IMG/VR virus record: IMGVR_UViG_2541047882_000003
Coordinates: 1-12,347 of that record
Origin: a virus
Lineage: Duplodnaviria > Heunggongvirae > Uroviricota > Caudoviricetes
Strand: one strand, 5' to 3'
DNA: 12,347 bases
The translations under genes and the position numbers were made by a program. Under the pieces are notes generated by a model that saw only the letters and a list, made by a program, of their open reading frames with translations, did not search any database and had not been told where the DNA came from. Within the stretch, counting starts at the first letter, position 1. Each line of letters starts with the position of its first letter. Shown in pieces: positions 1,102-12,347 of this stretch.

Positions 1102-1390
1102 GGCCTCCAGAGGATGGGGAAACAATGCCGTAATTGTGGCGACTGATAACGGGAAGGTGAAGCGCGTTTAAGCTGGTGGATGTGGTGCCATGTTTCCCAC
1201 CAATGGTGGAAAAGCCCACCAGCGCAACGCAGGACGCATAAAACCATTGCGATGACTCATGACAGGGGGATAACCACAAAAACAACGTCAGCGGCGCGAT
1301 TCTGGCTGTTCCTGTCCGGGATGTGCATACGTATTACGTACGCAGTTAATCCGGCATAACGCATGACGTTGATGAAACGCCCCGATCATC

Positions 1391-1465
1391 GCGGGTCCTC
1401 CTGGATGGGTACCCTTACCGCGGGGCGACGGACGCGCGGAAAAAGGCTGGTTTTTGCATTTTCAT
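1391..1465 (+). other. cos-like site A (cosQ-like CGGGTCCTCCTGG, cosN-like dyad CCGCG-N10-CGCGG at 1418-1439); orphan, no terS downstream
   Basis: Alignable to the phage lambda cosQ-cosN junction as I remember it (lambda ACGGGTCCTTTCCGG...GTTACGGGGCGGCGACCTCGCGGG). The 36-bp core CCTTACCGCGGGGCGACGGACGCGCGGAAAAAGGCT is identical to inverted copy C at 4085..4170. Confidence 0.5.
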
Positions 1466-1865
1466 GGCGGCGGCAGCATGTGTGGTAATATATTGATAAT
1501 TAAAAGTTATTTCTGTTTTCACCTGTACAATCTTTTTTCTCCCCTGTCATTAGACCAGTTCGCAATCAATTGAAATATATAAATAAATCTGATTTTCACC
1601 TGCCAGATGGAGTTGCCAGTGTCAAATGTGAGCGGAAGCGGTGATGCTTATCACTGAATCATGCCGCATCACGATACCAGACTCCCGGTACCGCTGCGTG
1701 ATAACCCACAAGGCTGGTGGCGATGCGTTATGGTCCGTGCATTGCCATTCTCCTGGCCTGGTGGCATTATCCGGCATGAACGAGCGGTTATTCTCCGTAC
1801 TCTTAATCGTTGTTCATGGTTATTTTCTTTGTGGTAGCTGACTTCTTGATGTCCTTATCCTCCTG

Positions 1866-1890
1866 CCCCGTAATCACGGGGTATTTTTTT
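1866..1890 (+). terminator. rho-independent terminator (plus strand)
   Basis: CCCCG (1866-1870) / CGGGG (1877-1881) stem, 6-nt loop, followed by TATTTTTTT. The T-run is on the plus strand only. Confidence 0.5.
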
Positions 1891-2424
1891 ATCTGTGATT
1901 TGCTGTTCTTCGCTGTGTTGGTATGGGGAGTTCTGGCAATGGTTCAGGCCGTCGCTTTCCTGGTACGTGATTTTTTACGTTCATTATTGTGCTGGTGGCA
2001 GCGTCACGGTGTGTCACGACATGTCACCATCACGTCACGCTGATTGCGAAAGCCAGGATTAACCAGTACCGGAACGGGTAGCCCGGTGTATTGTTACCGT
2101 CCTGCCTGCTGGTGGAGTAATTGATAACGGTTATCATCAACGGGAGGGGCGGATCAAATCCCTGCAGTCCTGGCTGTCCGGGACCGCCCGCCTACCCTTG
2201 TTCACATCGCCGCAGGTTCGAAAACTTTTTTTTGGGAAGGTGTGCACAGACTTGATAGGTAAAACCTATCAGGTAAAGCCACGTCAAACCCGCGCCATTG
2301 CTGGCATCGTTAAAAAAACTCACTCCACCAGCAGGCTAAAAAACTGTGATTTTTCCAGCTTTTGGGGCTCAAAAAGGGCTCCCTAAAAAAACTCTCACAC
2401 TGTCGGAGGGGGCGGGAAATTTTC

Positions 2425-2640
2425 ACGGGTCCTTTCCGGGATCTGAAACACCGCGGGGCGGTAGACGCGCAGGATTTCACTATTTATGAAAATTTTTCAG
2501 GGGAAAAGCGTGTCGGTACTTCTCGCGCATAACTGTTTGTTTTTATTAAAATCAACCACCAGAAACATACGACATCATAAAGCCAAAAAATCCTGTTTTT
2601 TTGGCGTTTCATGTCGGAGGTGGTTTTTGATAATAAATTG
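2425..2640 (+). other. lambda-like cos site B (cosQ, cosN-like, cosB R3/I1-like elements); orphan, no terS downstream
   Basis: ACGGGTCCTTTCCGG at 2425-2439 is identical to the lambda cosQ 15-mer. After a 16-nt spacer comes CCGCGGGGCGGTAGACGCGC (lambda has GGGCGGCGACCT here). CTATTTATGAAAATTTT at 2480-2496 is identical to lambda positions just right of cosN. Further lambda-cosB-like text follows (CATAACT..GTTTTTATTAAAAT, then a dyad). The ORF at the Nu1-equivalent position is only 25 codons and unrelated to Nu1. Confidence 0.65.
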
Positions 2641-2756
2641 GTGGATTAATGTTAATAAAAATGTTTTTACTACCTGATGGAAACAACCGGAAACGTGCCG
2701 GAGAAATTACGGCAACAGAAAGGTGAGTGACAGCCGCGCAATTATTGAACAAAACT

Positions 2757-2953
2757 GAGAAAGGATCTGATAACGTCATTTTTGGCCCAAAATGCCTACT
2801 GTCAGATCCTTTCTTTTTTTGATGATTTTACGATTAAACAATGAGTTACAGAGAAGAAGAACGGATCTGACTTTTCCCGAAAAATTTTCATAAACAGTTA
2901 AGAATTGCGCGTACCCGTACCCCCGGCGCTTAAGGTTCCGGGAAGGACCCGCC
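2757..2953 (-). other. lambda-like cos site D, inverted relative to B (cosQ-like, cosN-like, R3-like, distal 13-bp inverted repeat)
   Basis: On the minus strand: GCGGGTCCTTCCCGG (reverse complement of 2938-2953), a GC dyad GCGCC..GCGC (reverse complement of 2905-2933), CTGTTTATGAAAATTTTTCG (reverse complement of 2878-2897, against lambda CTATTTATGAAAATTTTCCG), TCCGTTCTTCTTC..TAACT (against lambda TCCGTTCTTCTTCGTCATAACT), then a 13-bp perfect inverted repeat AGAAAGGATCTGA (2758-2770) / TCAGATCCTTTCT (2802-2814) resembling the lambda GAAAGGAAACGACAG...CTGTCGTTTCCTTTC dyad. Confidence 0.55.
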
Positions 2954-3067
2954 GGAGATAGCTACCATAAGGCGTAATTAAATATCCGTGGATGTGCCAC
3001 GGAACAACCAGCTGAATACAGGTCAGCGTGATGACGGGAAATAAAGAGAATGGTTGCGAATCCTCCA

Positions 3068-3092
3068 CCTGGTGAATCTCCTGCACTACCTG
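3068..3092. repeat. 25-bp direct repeat copy 1 (CCTGGTGAATCTCCTGCACTACCTG); duplicate of the terS 3-prime end
   Basis: Exact 25-bp match to 3444..3468, which encodes the last 8 codons of the terS-like gene. Copy 1 is not in an intact gene. Confidence 0.85.
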
Positions 3093-3364
3093 TCATTTTT
3101 GCGCAAATACCCCTGGCATTTCTAAGCATGATCAACCTGATCATTGTTCGCGGTTTTTACGTGGCAAGGCCAGTAATTACGGGGCTTACATCAATGTTTA
3201 TTCCGCCCATCTCTGCGCAAAACAACTTAACAAACCTTAACATCACAGGCGGAACCATTGCGCAAATCTGGAGGCTTACCGCACGCACCAGCCTGATACA
3301 TTGCCAGAATGAACGAGGTGCGACACAATGTGTGTGCATGTCTTACTCATTGAACCTCAATCAA

Positions 3365-3397
3365 GGCGCATCCTTAGCGGTGCGCTTTTATTTTTTT
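3365..3397 (+). terminator. candidate rho-independent terminator (plus strand)
   Basis: GCGCA (3365-3369) pairs with TGCGC (3380-3384), with possible extra CC/GG pairs, followed by TTTTATTTTTTTG. Confidence 0.4.
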
Positions 3398-3435
3398 GTC
3401 GTTCCCTGCTGGTGGATGTTTTCCGGTACCGCGAA

Positions 3436-3945
3436 TTATTCCCCCTGGTGAATCTCCTGCACTACCTGCGGCGTGCTGTCGTGCCAGTCGTTAGCCTGTA
3501 TCACTCTGGTAGTAATTTGCCTGCACAGGTCATCAATAATCTGCCTGACGCGGTTTACTGCGTTCTGATTGATGCCTGCATCGTGCGCCAGAATGTCGGG
3601 GAGTTTTGCCAGTTCCTCGCTTAAGATTTTCCCAAAAATAACCAACTCCCTGCGCACATCCACGGCGGGGATAAGTTCAGCCGTTTCCTGCTCGAACTTA
3701 AGGCGCTCACGCTCAGACTGGTACCAGGCTTTACGGCTTTGTGGATCCATGTCTTCGAGTGATGCGGGGGCGGGTATATTCATGAATGCGCTGATTATAT
3801 CCGTCAGTCGGTACAGCTTTAATTTTTCATGCCCTCCGGCTGGCTGAATGTCCTTTAGCCTTTTCGCTACTGTCTGGCGGCAAACTCCCGCCAGTTCTGC
3901 GAGTTGATTGATATTAAGTTTCAGGTTTTTAAGCTCCCGATCCAT
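3436..3945 (-). CDS. phage small terminase subunit, lambda Nu1 family (TerS-like); longest ORF extends to 3984
   Basis: N-terminal LNINQLAELAGVCRQTVAKRLKD...EKLKLYRLTDIISAF aligns with the lambda Nu1 winged-HTH region (VNKKQLADIFGASIRTIQNWQEQ...NEVLYDSAAVIKWY), and the length is similar (169-182 aa against 181). GGAGG lies 4 nt upstream of the ATG at 3945, so I favour that start. No large terminase ORF follows. Confidence 0.7.
   Translation of the reverse strand: MDRELKNLKLNINQLAELAGVCRQTVAKRLKDIQPAGGHEKLKLYRLTDIISAFMNIPAPASLEDMDPQSRKAWYQSERERLKFEQETAELIPAVDVRRELVIFGKILSEELAKLPDILAHDAGINQNAVNRVRQIIDDLCRQITTRVIQANDWHDSTPQVVQEIHQGE
3444..3468. repeat. 25-bp direct repeat copy 2 (within the terS 3-prime end)
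   Basis: Exact match to 3068..3092. Confidence 0.85.
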
Positions 3946-4084
3946 TCGTCCTCCGGTAGTTTTAAATGCGTATCGTGCGCTCATCTTTCAGTGGGTTAAA
4001 AGTGTTCTGTATGTTGAACAAAAAACACCCCAAATTAACATAGTAAAAATATATTTCATTTTAATTCAACATGTTGGAAAGATG

Positions 4085-4170
4085 ATGATGACGGATGAAA
4101 ATGTAAAAATTAGCCTTTTTCCGCGCGTCCGTCGCCCCGCGGTAAGGCCACCCCTCCGGAAGGACCCGTA
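4085..4170 (-). other. cos-like site C (inverted copy of A) about 140 bp upstream of the terS-like gene
   Basis: On the minus strand: ACGGGTCCTTCCGG (reverse complement of 4155-4168), then CCGCGGGGCGACGGACGCGCGG (reverse complement of 4120-4141), then AAAAAGGCT..ATTTTTACATTTTCAT. This is the lambda arrangement cosQ-cosN-cosB followed by Nu1, with similar spacing to the terS start. Confidence 0.55.
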
Positions 4171-4276: not shown

Positions 4277-4564
4277 TCACTGGTTACCGCCAGGCTGCTT
4301 CGGGTAGTTCCGCCAGACGGATTTACCCGCGTCTTCCATCCCCATCACCGCATGAGTGCGGTTTACAGCCTCTTTCAGTGCCCCGAAGTTATCCGCCATA
4401 ACGGGTGGGCGTGCTGCCCTGCGGATGCATTCCGCGCGACGCTTTGCCACCTGTTCGCGCTCCTTATCGGTGTTCACCAGCTGCATGACCTCAGCCCACC
4501 GCGCCGCCGCTCTCCGGTACAGGCCTTTAGCCTCCAGTTCTTCCGCTTTGCTGTCACGAATCAT
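4277..4564 (-). CDS. PerC-family-like small transcriptional regulator (paralog 2)
   Basis: 95 aa with DSKAEELEAKGLYRRAAARWAEV, matching the paralog at 1..372. Its start overlaps the stop of the upstream gene (ATGA at 4561-4564), indicating translational coupling. Confidence 0.6.
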   Translation of the reverse strand: MIRDSKAEELEAKGLYRRAAARWAEVMQLVNTDKEREQVAKRRAECIRRAARPPVMADNFGALKEAVNRTHAVMGMEDAGKSVWRNYPKQPGGNQ

Positions 4565-5982: not shown

Positions 5983-6133
5983 TTTTGCGGGTTATAATCG
6001 CGCTTTTGCGGGTTATTTAGGCCCATTTGCGGGTTATTTGGGGTATTTTGCGGGTTACGATTTTTCTGTCATTTCTTTAATAATCATATGGATACTGACT
6101 TATCCACAGAAATAACCCGCATAACCCGCAAAA
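5983..6133. repeat. iteron array (TTTGCGGGTTA x4 direct at 21-22 bp spacing, plus 2 inverted copies) with an AT-rich spacer; candidate replication origin
   Basis: Direct copies of TTTTGCGGGTTAT at 5983-5995, 6004-6016, 6025-6037 and 6047-6058. AT-rich stretch 6061-6100. Inverted copies ATAACCCGC (6112-6120) and ATAACCCGCAAAA (6121-6133). Located immediately downstream of the replication-protein stop at 6159. Confidence 0.6.
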
Positions 6134-6158
6134 TTTTCACCCTACACGCGAGAAAAAA

Positions 6159-11105: not shown

Positions 11106-12347
11106 TTACACGGCACGGATACCCCTTTTACCACTGGCTATGGTCACTCCGGTAGCTGCGGCCTCTACAAATTCCCCCCACCAGCGCATAAGCACCACGC
11201 GCTTTTCCAGGTAGTTACTTCGGTTATATGCTCGCCTTACCTCGTTTGTGTCCACGTGTGCGAGTGCGGCCTCGATTACGTCCGGCTCGAATCCTTCCTC
11301 GTTCGCTGCTGTACTGAATATGGCGCGTAATCCGTGAGACACCAGCACACCAGCGTAACCCATCCGGCGCAATGCGGCGTTAGCTGTCTGGCTGCTCATT
11401 GGCAGCATTGGATTTTTAAGGCTGGGAAAAACGTGTTCCCTGTGTGCGCTGATTGGCTTCATGGTTTCCAGTACAGCCATAGCCTGACCGCAAAGGGGGA
11501 TCACGTGGTCACGGCGCATCTTCATGCGTCCGGCTGGAATCGTCCAGGTTTCGGCATCGAGATCTATTTCTTCCCAGCGTGCGGCGGCTGCTTCGGCTGG
11601 GCGTGCTACGGTCAGCAGTTGCCACTCAATCAGCAATCTGGTTTGCCGTTCTATGCTGGCGACCGATAAATCGTGCATTAGCTGCGGTAGCTGTTCCGGT
11701 CGGATGGTTGGCATGTGCTTTTTGGTGGGTGAGGGGAATGCCTTGCGGACGTTCGCGGCGGTGTTGATGTCAATCAGCCCACTGTTGGCAGCAAAATCCA
11801 TCACTTCATTGATGCGTTGTAAAACGCGTTTCAGAGTTTCCAGGTTGCCGCGTGCTTTAATGGGTGTGAGTATCTCAACAAAGCGGCGAGCTGTGAGGGT
11901 ATCTATTGGCGTGTTTCCGATGTACGGGAATACGTATTTTTCCAGGGATCGCCAGATATCCTTAATCGTGTTGTAAGCCAGATTCTGGCCTTTTTTCATC
12001 TCGTACCAGTCCGAGGCAACTTTTTCGAACGTGTTGCCCTTTTTCCGACTCTCTGCTTCACGTTTCCGGCGTTCGTGGTCCTGTGGGTCAACTCCCTTCG
12101 CTATGAGTGACCTGTATTCATTCCGTCGTTCTCTGGCATCGGACAGGGAAACATCATTCAGCGATCCGAGGCTGATGATAGTCCGTTTTTTATCTGCCGG
12201 GCGGTAGTACGTAAAACGCCAGATTTTTGATCCGGAGGGTTTCACCAGAAGAAATAATCCTCCACCATCCTGCAGGGTGTATTCCTTTTCCCCTGGTCGT
12301 GCGTTTTTGATCTCCGTGATGGTTAGTGGAGTGGTTTTTCGTGCCAT
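11106..12347 (-). CDS. int: tyrosine-type site-specific integrase, P4-like
   Basis: 413 aa. N-terminal DGGGLFLLVKPSGSKIWRFTYY arm-binding-like region and C-terminal HGLRAIFST ... AALAHVDTNEVRRAYNRSNY catalytic region (H-x-x-R and the terminal Tyr) are typical of P4-family integrases. The ATG is the last three bases of the window, so the upstream region and att site are not visible. Confidence 0.9.
   Translation of the reverse strand: MARKTTPLTITEIKNARPGEKEYTLQDGGGLFLLVKPSGSKIWRFTYYRPADKKRTIISLGSLNDVSLSDARERRNEYRSLIAKGVDPQDHERRKREAESRKKGNTFEKVASDWYEMKKGQNLAYNTIKDIWRSLEKYVFPYIGNTPIDTLTARRFVEILTPIKARGNLETLKRVLQRINEVMDFAANSGLIDINTAANVRKAFPSPTKKHMPTIRPEQLPQLMHDLSVASIERQTRLLIEWQLLTVARPAEAAAARWEEIDLDAETWTIPAGRMKMRRDHVIPLCGQAMAVLETMKPISAHREHVFPSLKNPMLPMSSQTANAALRRMGYAGVLVSHGLRAIFSTAANEEGFEPDVIEAALAHVDTNEVRRAYNRSNYLEKRVVLMRWWGEFVEAAATGVTIASGKRGIRAV

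Follow-up and report, generated by a model that had tools for sequence, protein, structure and literature searches.

Nested convergent cos pairs in the packaging region of an Escherichia coli phage-inducible chromosomal island

Introduction

What use could a small genetic island have for four cos sites? The question is raised by a DNA of 12,347 bp (IMG/VR record IMGVR_UViG_2541047882_000003; here 'the window', meaning the whole stretch analysed), which is a nearly complete phage-inducible chromosomal island (PICI) of the EcCICFT073 family. For EcCICFT073 itself, passages of PMC6092414 and PMC6739421 describe two cos sites, both functional and only cos1 dependent on Rpp, and their authors asked why some PICIs have two. 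Here we show that the packaging region of the window (1390–4170) consists of two phage-derived packaging cassettes, one nested in the other, each enclosed between two complete cos sites in convergent orientation. The outer pair, A/C, is from lambdoid phages with a DUF1441-type small terminase (TerS), and the inner pair, B/D, from lambda/21-type phages with a Nu1-type TerS.

Multi-cos PICI packaging modules are already known, and the four-site nested form is a variant of that kind. The element and its relatives nevertheless suggest a testable answer to the question that PMC6739421, in its passages on two cos sites, left open: the extra sites may be complete cos sites of other helper specificities, set as convergent pairs around a specificity gene. 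If this is true, helper range would be set by a small collection of cis sites and could be predicted by matching the cosB boxes of islands and prophages. Such islands are vehicles for the spread of virulence and defence genes in E. coli, and the arrangement is also relevant to engineered PICI or cosmid delivery vectors.

Four complete cos sites on two strands

An earlier reading of the letters alone (the sequence-only reading) had placed four lambda-like cos copies in this DNA, and all are present at those places and on those strands: A at 1393 (+), B at 2427 (+), D at 2950 (−) and C at 4167 (−). A repeat finder gave A/C (1392–1465 versus 4095–4168, 74 nt, 89% complementary) and B/D (2426–2501 versus 2876–2951, 76 nt, 74% complementary) as the two longest inverted repeats of the region. 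The composite pattern GGGTCCT-N17-24-GGGG-N6-8-ACGCGC has exactly four matches (1393+, 2427+, 2950−, 4167−) and had none in 200 shuffles; its first element, the cosQ heptamer GGGTCCT, lies about 17–22 nt upstream of cosN at all four sites. The features of the packaging region are as follows.

1390–1439 (+): cos A core, with cosQ GGGTCCT 1393–1399 and dyad CCGCG 1418–1422 / CGCGG 1435–1439
1423–1434 (+): presumptive 12-nt overhang of A, GGGCGACGGACG
1440–1618 (+): cosB of A, phage type, with the repeat TTTTCACCTG at 1516–1525 and 1593–1602
1619–1657 (+): stub of a DUF1441-type phage terS after A (GTG replaces ATG, 12 codons, then TGA; a 13-codon stub)
2424–2472 (+): cos B core, with cosQ 2427–2433 and CCGCG 2451–2455
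2456–2467 (+): presumptive overhang of B, GGGCGGTAGACG
2480–2644 (+): cosB of B, phage-21 type, with I2 2485–2499, R3 2506–2521 (AAGCGTGTCGGTACTT), I1 2528–2542, R2 2565–2580, R1 2607–2622 and I0 ~2629–2643, by alignment to the annotated phage 21 cos (M81255)
2645–2730 (+): Nu1-type terS remnant, with ATG changed to ATT at 2645–2647 and the 3′ end kept to TGA 2728–2730
2757–2892 (−): complete cosB of D, with I2 2892–2878, R3 2871–2854 (GTCAGATCCGTTCTTCTT), the I1 region, R2 2818–2801 (inverted) and R1 2772–2757; no terS follows
2907–2953 (−): cos D core, with cosQ 2950–2944 and cosN region 2926–2907
2923–2912 (−): presumptive overhang of D, GGGGTACGGGTA, in a register set by alignment only
3064–3092 (−): 29-nt copy of the DUF1441 terS 3′ end, a direct repeat of 3440–3468 and a recombination scar upstream of cos D
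3436–3945 (−): intact DUF1441-family small terminase of the island (169 aa with ATG 3945 as start, 182 aa with the alternative start ATG 3984)
3985–4120 (−): cosB of C, with a CAACAT motif at 4067–4076 (palindrome) and inside 4019–4011
4121–4170 (−): cos C core, with cosQ 4167–4161, CCGCG 4142–4138 and CGCGG 4125–4121
4137–4126 (−): presumptive overhang of C, GGGCGACGGACG

A and C have one and the same cosN, CCGCG-GGGCGACGGACG-CGCGG, in which two perfect 5-bp dyad arms enclose a 12-bp interval. At B four of the five arm positions pair, and at D the two-fold symmetry is weaker than at A/C. As the sequence-only reading had it, B and D are each distinct and no site has the lambda cohesive-end sequence GGGCGGCGACCT, which both cos1 and cos2 of CFT073 carry.

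Each site has its own phage counterpart

For comparison, approximately 330 loci were gathered from IMG/VR, metagenomes and E. coli genomes, and a cos was called phage-type, or terminase-linked, when terL (the gene for the large terminase, TerL) follows. The four window sites match different terminase-linked sites: A matches L183 (89% identity over 275 nt; TerS group ATCC 25922-type DUF1441), C matches L249 (81%; mEp460-type DUF1441), B matches L278 (78%; 21-like Nu1) and D matches L044 (77%; 21-like Nu1, with a different cosB). The alignments run for 215–275 nt at 77–89% identity, well beyond the short blocks first noticed, and uphold the earlier view that these are phage-derived cos sites of different origins.

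In B and D the full cosB is present, in the I2-R3-I1-R2-R1 order of phage 21 when aligned to the annotated phage 21 and lambda cos. BLAST against phage records gave E values of 4e-28 to 4e-41 for B with the phage 21 and PhiR5_1 cos, and of 5e-27 for D with phage SerU-LTIIb. The R-box core of B (GTGTCGG) is that of phage 21, whereas the box core of D reads CAGATCC(G/T)TTCT against CGTTTCC(G/T)TTCT in lambda. The 17-mer CTATTTATGAAAATTTT, which the sequence-only reading had taken for lambda R3-region text, is indeed exact in B (2480–2496), but it covers the I2 site for integration host factor between cosN and R3, not R3 itself.

The cosB regions of A and C have other repeated motifs than R boxes, yet they align along the whole cosB of terminase-linked DUF1441-type sites, and the repeat of A (TTTTCACCTG) and the CAACAT repeat of C are conserved in their respective phage counterparts. 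Together with 190 nt downstream, A is 89.5% identical to the cos of the lambdoid prophage of strain ATCC 25922, which lies directly upstream of a DUF1441 terS, terL and portal gene; the homology stops at ~1656, in the stub. For C and the beginning of its gene, BLAST matched PhiR40_1, phi458 and mEp460, with E values down to 3e-32.

One intact small terminase gene

At none of the four sites does cos stand directly before terS and terL: C has a terS without terL, A a stub, B a deleted gene, and D nothing. That only C precedes an intact terS had been noticed before, and the gene proves to be a DUF1441-family small terminase (Pfam PF07278, E 4.7e-35), 57–63% identical to the TerS that mEp460, PhiR40_1 and related phages encode directly upstream of terL. 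The possibility that this gene is an Rpp was rejected by searches of Protein Data Bank (PDB) chains and by tblastn. Against the PDB chain library at E ≤ 10, the island TerS gave six chance matches, the best at E 0.14 (the inclusion of RppC in that library is unconfirmed), and tblastn with RppA found matches in CFT073 alone. RppA (144 aa) is 18% identical to the Nu1-type TerS of sister islands and unrelated to the DUF1441 TerS.

Relative to the intact gene of sister L003, the Nu1-type terS of the window lacks approximately 500 bp between ~2663 and ~2669 and keeps its last 60 nt. Intact copies (194–200 aa) are found in sister islands L002-L004, L008, L011-L013 and L016, and their products share 58% identity with the TerS of a 21-like prophage and 52% with lambda Nu1. 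Site D abuts the 3′ end of the remnant and is without a gene of its own. The earlier suggestion that recombination with phages had left scars is supported by the 13-codon stub after A, and by the ATT codon and ~500-bp deletion after B.

The 29-nt direct repeat (3064–3092 and 3440–3468) brackets a 347-bp segment, 3093–3439, that is found only in islands with this DUF1441 terS allele (coverage 3.3 of nine sister elements). This segment looks like the scar of an allele replacement via recombination at the terS 3′ end.

Two nested modules on the plan of cos1-rppA-cos2

Read on the minus strand, in the ProQ-PerC direction, the order is C, terS (DUF1441), D, the opposed terS (Nu1) remnant, opposed B, opposed A, and the homologue of open reading frame (ORF) 811–1125. 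In CFT073 we located cos1 (+) at 2528 of locus L005, rppA at 2659–3093 (+) and cos2 (−) at 3338, followed by the downstream gene seen in the window, so that the model island follows the plan of the window with a single pair. Its cos2 is also a phage-type cos, because its cosB boxes (CATGTCCGGTTTC) recur at terminase-linked phage sites in the locus set. The sequence-only reading had the four copies, without their nested convergent architecture, its identity with cos1-rppA-cos2, or inversions at cos cores. Orientation, nesting and inversion gave no hits in term look-ups of the two EcCICFT073 papers (PMC6092414, PMC6739421), and a search for literature on DUF1441 or on multiple or inverted cos sites in PICIs returned nothing beyond these two.

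Both islands belong to the same family and share a backbone. In both, a cos directly precedes a small winged helix-turn-helix (HTH) specificity gene, an inverted second cos precedes the ORF 811–1125 homologue, cosQ and the overall plan are of lambda type, and the second site carries a cosB with all three boxes and a different specificity. The window differs from EcCICFT073 in having two nested modules with four sites, in specificity genes that are true TerS homologues (DUF1441-type and Nu1-type) rather than Rpp, and in a cosN that is not the lambda sequence. Furthermore, all four of its cosB regions resemble phage cosB, whereas cos1 has a private cosB. Major capsid and head decoration proteins are annotated just upstream of the cos module in EcCICFT073 (L005 1–3700) and in the island of strain cq9 (L008 6093–7488); a passage of the 2018 paper states that EcCICFT073 lacks capsid morphogenesis genes (PMC6092414).

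Presumptive cohesive ends differ between islands and phages

An entropy profile pooled over cos cores blended several classes and gave no usable information; class-wise tables took its place. Three phage cosN classes are invariant: GGGCGGCGACCT with Nu1-type TerS (at least 50 terminase-linked sites), GGGCGGGAGCGT with DUF1441-type TerS (at least 55) and GGGCGGCAGCGG (16). In all four window sites the variable part ends ACG-CGC, resembling a further class, CCGGGGG-N7, even at A/C, whose flanks derive from the invariant DUF1441 class. A and C share an identical 36-nt run centred on cosN, though their flanks come from different phage lineages. The presumptive cohesive-end sequence varies between islands and their likely helpers, which the classical lambda picture of one shared end did not anticipate. 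Either the large terminase ignores overhang positions 6–12, or the true helpers lie outside our sample. The exact 22-mer of the B cosN had no match in IMG/VR. A metagenome scan with the 21-mer of A/C gave 20 loci, with cos sites in L319 and L327 only and chance matches in GC-rich DNA in the others.

The fourth phage class, CCGGGGG-N7-ACGCGCAA, has 11–13 interior variants in 22–23 sites with near-identical flanks (L048, L051, L055, L060, L085, L271, L278, L280, L281, L285-L287, L290-L293, L296, L298, L301, L302, L310, L311). These phages form one lambdoid lineage with a Nu1-type TerS and a 21-type TerL, and the seven interior bases are nearly random between phages. A second island family of ~10 kb (L160, L164-L166, L169, L176, L195, L210, L218, L225, L228, L235) has a phage-type cos and a TerS-linked cos, both of the DUF1441 class, in direct orientation and ~2.5 kb apart. 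Its cosN pair differs at one position (GGGCGGGAGCGT versus GGGCGGGAGCGG).

Inversions between cos cores

To every site we assigned a type from the flank before cosQ (Q, 100 nt) and from cosB (B, 108 nt), by comparison with the four window sites. The parental pairings (QA.BA, QB.BB, QC.BC, QD.BD) are those of the window, L001-L004, L012 and L014. The recombinant pairings QA.BC, QB.BD and QD.BB are found in L007 and L011, with QC.BA additionally in L007 and a cosB of another type beside QC in L011, and L016 has QB.BD and QD.BB. Segment 9262–10286 of L012 is segment 10625–9601 of L016 reversed (1025 bp, 91%), with collinear flanks, and the difference between the two is a clean inversion of the inner segment between two cores. 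In L007 and L011 the outer segment is inverted and the inner one re-inverted, and L013 has a block inversion. Across these elements, cos sites are recombination junctions at which packaging modules are inverted and re-paired.

In all three elements with an inverted inner segment, the inner cosN pair is identical or 1 nt apart, while in elements of parental arrangement the two are unlike. Homogenisation of cosN together with inversion is the pattern expected from a break at cosN repaired off the inverted partner, sometimes with crossover; we infer that the breaks would be made by terminase.

Chi sequences

The Chi sequence (GCTGGTGG) occurs 23 times in the 12.3-kb window on both strands, versus 0.41 expected (for example at 1037+, 1172+, 1713+, 1991+, 2108+, 2325−, 3408+ and 4694−). 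Its density is 10.8 per 10 kb in 59 PICI loci versus 3.8 in phage loci, and Chi ranks first among 168 permutations of its own letters (616 versus a median of 11). With orientation worked out by hand, correctly oriented Chi lies within ~1 kb of both ends that a cut at A or at C would create; at B this holds for the end on the cosQ side, and none is near D. The enrichment suggests protection from RecBCD and stimulated recombination at cos. A literature search on Chi with PICI found no paper.

Recurrence, conservation and co-resident prophages

Among the first 268 loci, 11 have four cos sites, all in the order + + − −, and nine have three. The four-site plan recurs in at least ten sister elements, in islands that differ by 5–15%, by gene swaps and by inversions. 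Divergence from the window in nine sister elements is as follows.

cosB of D: 3.0%
cosB of A: 4.5%
cosB of C: 12.5%
cosB of B: 16.8%
Neighbouring non-coding DNA: 5–10%
Backbone genes: 4–8.5%

The gene-less cosB regions of D and A are thus the most conserved non-coding parts of the region, and those that adjoin terS genes of the island itself, B and C, are the most variable, as if changing together with the gene alleles. In three sisters the DUF1441 terS is replaced by the gene of a 261-aa secreted protein (L007 5334–6119, L011 9985–10779, L016 8466–9254). The RefSeq annotation of one relative includes an 'F4 family fimbrial subunit', whose identity with the 261-aa protein is not confirmed; if the two are the same, an accessory or virulence-type gene sits within the packaging cassette.

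Potential helpers are common. Of 5426 complete E. coli genomes, 736 contain at least 80% of the phage cos-terS query of the A type, 1363 that of the C type, 676 that of the B type and 57 that of the D type. Four of the five top genomes for the B-type phage query host islands with the B-terS-D cassette. Strains A36 and cq9 each have a complete prophage terminase module with the R3 box of the island's B-type cosB, and strain P393-F10 one with that of the D-type cosB.

What the four sites may do

We consider it probable, on balance, that C and its TerS are the island's packaging start, that A, D and B are entry sites for the terminases of other helpers, and that the inverted pairs recombine. Transcription from the upstream ProQ-PerC genes would run through cos C into the gene of the island TerS (3945–3436), and this TerS would bind the cosB of C and recruit the helper large terminase to cut the cosN of that site. 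Island concatemers would be packaged toward lower coordinates, with intervening cos sites skipped until three to four units fill the helper head. At A and D, whose unmodified phage-type cosB would represent two further specificities, and at B, of phage-21 type, native helper terminases could start without an island protein, the partner gene of B having been lost in the window copy. As A, B and D would be open to terminases of other helper lineages, the four sites would widen the helper range. Each pair would also be a 75–105 bp inverted repeat cut by terminase, with Chi around it; repair of cosN breaks would use the partner site as template, homogenising cosN and sometimes inverting the segment between.

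Several points weigh against this account. Cutting, packaging direction and helper identity are all things that we infer. The cosB of C is 81% like phage cosB, so the island TerS, which differs by ~40% from phage TerS, may have no private specificity, and the dead terS genes after A and B make some decay certain. Deletion of cos2 raised the transfer of EcCICFT073, according to a passage of PMC6092414, so that a second cos is not simply beneficial with every helper. The window cosN sequences differ from those of the nearest phages; in cos context the A/C 21-mer is found in islands only, always as an A/C pair (four IMG/VR and two metagenome contigs), and the co-resident prophages share the R3 box of the island and have a different cosN interior. 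The helper TerL would have to tolerate the island cosN sequences. Additionally, the divergence figures are weak evidence because recombination blurs them, and strains A36, cq9 and P393-F10 were taken from top-hit lists, a non-random sample.

The sequence-only reading had preferred to see most copies as decaying remnants. In its strict form, in which only C and its terS work and A, B and D are inert traces of cassettes taken one after another from different phages, too recent to be erased, we regard this as unlikely. The 13-codon terS after A, the terS after B without its start codon and ~500 bp, the lack of a gene at D, the cosN sequences unlike those of all nearest phages, and the 29-nt scar at 3064–3092 are what it would predict. 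Yet all cores, cosB regions and R boxes are intact, the four-site plan has been kept across sisters despite their divergence, gene swaps and inversions, and the gene-less cosB regions, the most conserved non-coding DNA of the region, match the cosB boxes of resident prophages, with R3 boxes shared in three genomes. The gene-less equivalent in EcCICFT073, cos2, is one of the two sites described as functional in PMC6092414. Death as remnants therefore fits the terS genes only, not the intact, conserved and recurrent sites. The related objection that tandem cos sites ~1 kb apart would yield unpackageable fragments is weak, as a passage of PMC6092414 has terminase skipping successive cos sites to package this 12–13 kb island type into a full-sized capsid.

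The alternative that the sequence-only reading had held in reserve, helper-specific entry sites or terminase-titrating decoys, is a better fit than remnants. As decoys, phage-type cos sites on amplified island DNA would mainly soak up helper terminase or provoke unproductive cuts, for putative interference with the phage and not for transfer. The unmodified phage-type cosB at A and D would suit this role, as would the geometry, in which convergent cuts on one copy would free merely a 0.5–2.7 kb fragment, and the increased transfer on cos2 deletion (PMC6092414, in the passage cited) would suit a role outside transfer. However, a cos that binds terminase also starts island packaging, which makes decoy and entry site hard to separate, and the island TerS is already available to compete for TerL; we think that a mainly decoy role is improbable.

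Still less probable, in our view, is an invertible switch, driven by terminase or recombination, in which the inverted cos pairs flip cassettes at a useful frequency, changing the terS that faces the operon and re-pairing cosQ/cosB halves. Inner and outer segments do occur in both natural orientations with junctions within cores, the Nu1-type terS runs with the operon in L013, L016, L020 and L069 and against it in the window family, Chi is highly enriched, and convergent cos sites with the same overhang would give inversion-compatible ends. On the other hand, there is no dedicated invertase or recombinase in or beside 1390–4170 (where not all small ORFs were tested), and the three inverted variants, found only among sister lineages, point to evolutionary events. 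B and D of the window share short identical runs only and have unlike overhangs, so that they could hardly recombine now, and orientation states map poorly onto which terS is intact. A programmed switch is not supported by these comparisons.

Helper entry sites that also recombine could be extended into a general proposal, which we put forward tentatively and think more doubtful than the account for the window itself: paired inverted cos sites may be a selected device of E. coli PICIs, combining helper keys with self-renewal through terminase breaks and Chi-assisted repair. If so, each site would be the key to one helper terminase class, and a four-site island could be packaged by four phage lineages. 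With cosN homogenised, cosQ/cosB halves re-paired and cassettes flipped, the key set would be reshuffled at every helper encounter. Islands would keep overhang positions 6–12 unlike those of their helpers, and the same seven positions are hypervariable in one lambdoid lineage, a pattern that suggests selection on cohesive-end compatibility beyond terminase recognition.

Three further ideas were rejected. Bidirectional lateral transduction from the integrated island fails since termination needs a second cos, and cos phages, according to PMC12829572, do not carry out lateral transduction. B-terS-D as a terminase-excised, transposon-like cassette fails on its ends: the excised piece would have two identical, non-complementary overhangs, so that only inversion is end-compatible. 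An inverted site that salvages a free concatemer end is countered by the convergence of the pairs, which makes simultaneous cuts wasteful.

Relation to other packaging and inversion systems

B and D align element by element to the cos of lambda and phage 21 (M81255), sharing cosQ GGGTCCT and, in B, the exact CTATTTATGAAAATTTT, and have R2 inverted relative to R3 and R1. They differ in the presumptive overhang at positions 6–12, in belonging to a set of four sites and not one, and in the lack at D of the terS that always follows cos in phages. C and its gene resemble the lambdoid modules of the mEp460/PhiR40_1/Gifsy type (74% identical in DNA, 57–63% in protein), and A a second subtype of the DUF1441 cos-terS module, that of the ATCC 25922 prophage (89%). 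Unlike in the mEp460/PhiR40_1/Gifsy-type modules, where cosN is invariably GGGCGGGAGCGT, A and C have GGGCGACGGACG, and no terL follows in the island.

Like TerS-encoding Staphylococcus aureus pathogenicity islands (SaPIs), the island encodes its own TerS beside its own site. In cos-type SaPIs (SaPIbov5, and SaPIbov4 with two putative cos sites), islands that carry a helper cos are packaged by the helper terminase, according to a passage of PMC6092414. Unlike the TerS-encoding SaPIs, which are of the pac/headful type, the window combines the TerS and cos strategies and would address several helper classes at once. As in the G segment of phage Mu, the C segment of P1 and shufflons, segments bounded by inverted repeats occur in both orientations, changing the gene that faces the promoter; unlike in those systems, a dedicated invertase is lacking, terminase cleavage sites serve as the repeats, and inversion is seen between lineages only.

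Island identity and backbone

Assignment to the EcCICFT073 type follows int, an alpA-type regulator, a primase/replicase with adjacent origin, a length of ~12–13 kb, no lysis or tail genes, and site-specific integration. The window shows this type by the annotation of a near-identical island at tRNA-Pro, by Pfam, by iterons and by backbone homology, the backbone being common to the window and EcCICFT073 of strain CFT073. At least 80% of the window is present in six complete E. coli genomes. In the top match (98.2% identity over 99%) the element is flanked by tRNA-Pro/yejM and yejO, and its annotated genes encode an integrase, an HTH regulator, an Icd-like protein, a DUF927 primase, a single-stranded DNA-binding protein (SSB), ProQ/FinO, two PerC regulators and a DUF1441 protein. 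Pfam agrees with these assignments for the window. Outside the packaging region we annotated the following.

5984–6057: iteron array, TTTGCGGGTTA at 21-bp spacing, four copies in three overlapping 32-nt units
6110–6134: inverted iteron copies; the array is directly downstream of the DUF927 primase gene
11106–12347: integrase, the sole recombinase in the window

The iteron array (5984–6134) is likely the replication origin of the island. Neither Rfam nor a tRNA scan gave anything relevant in the window, and a GC-rich stretch at ~2150–2200 matched no known RNA in the Rfam scan. The two PerC-family regulator genes (1–372 and 4277–4564) are diverged, being 42% identical, and stand one on each side of the packaging region.

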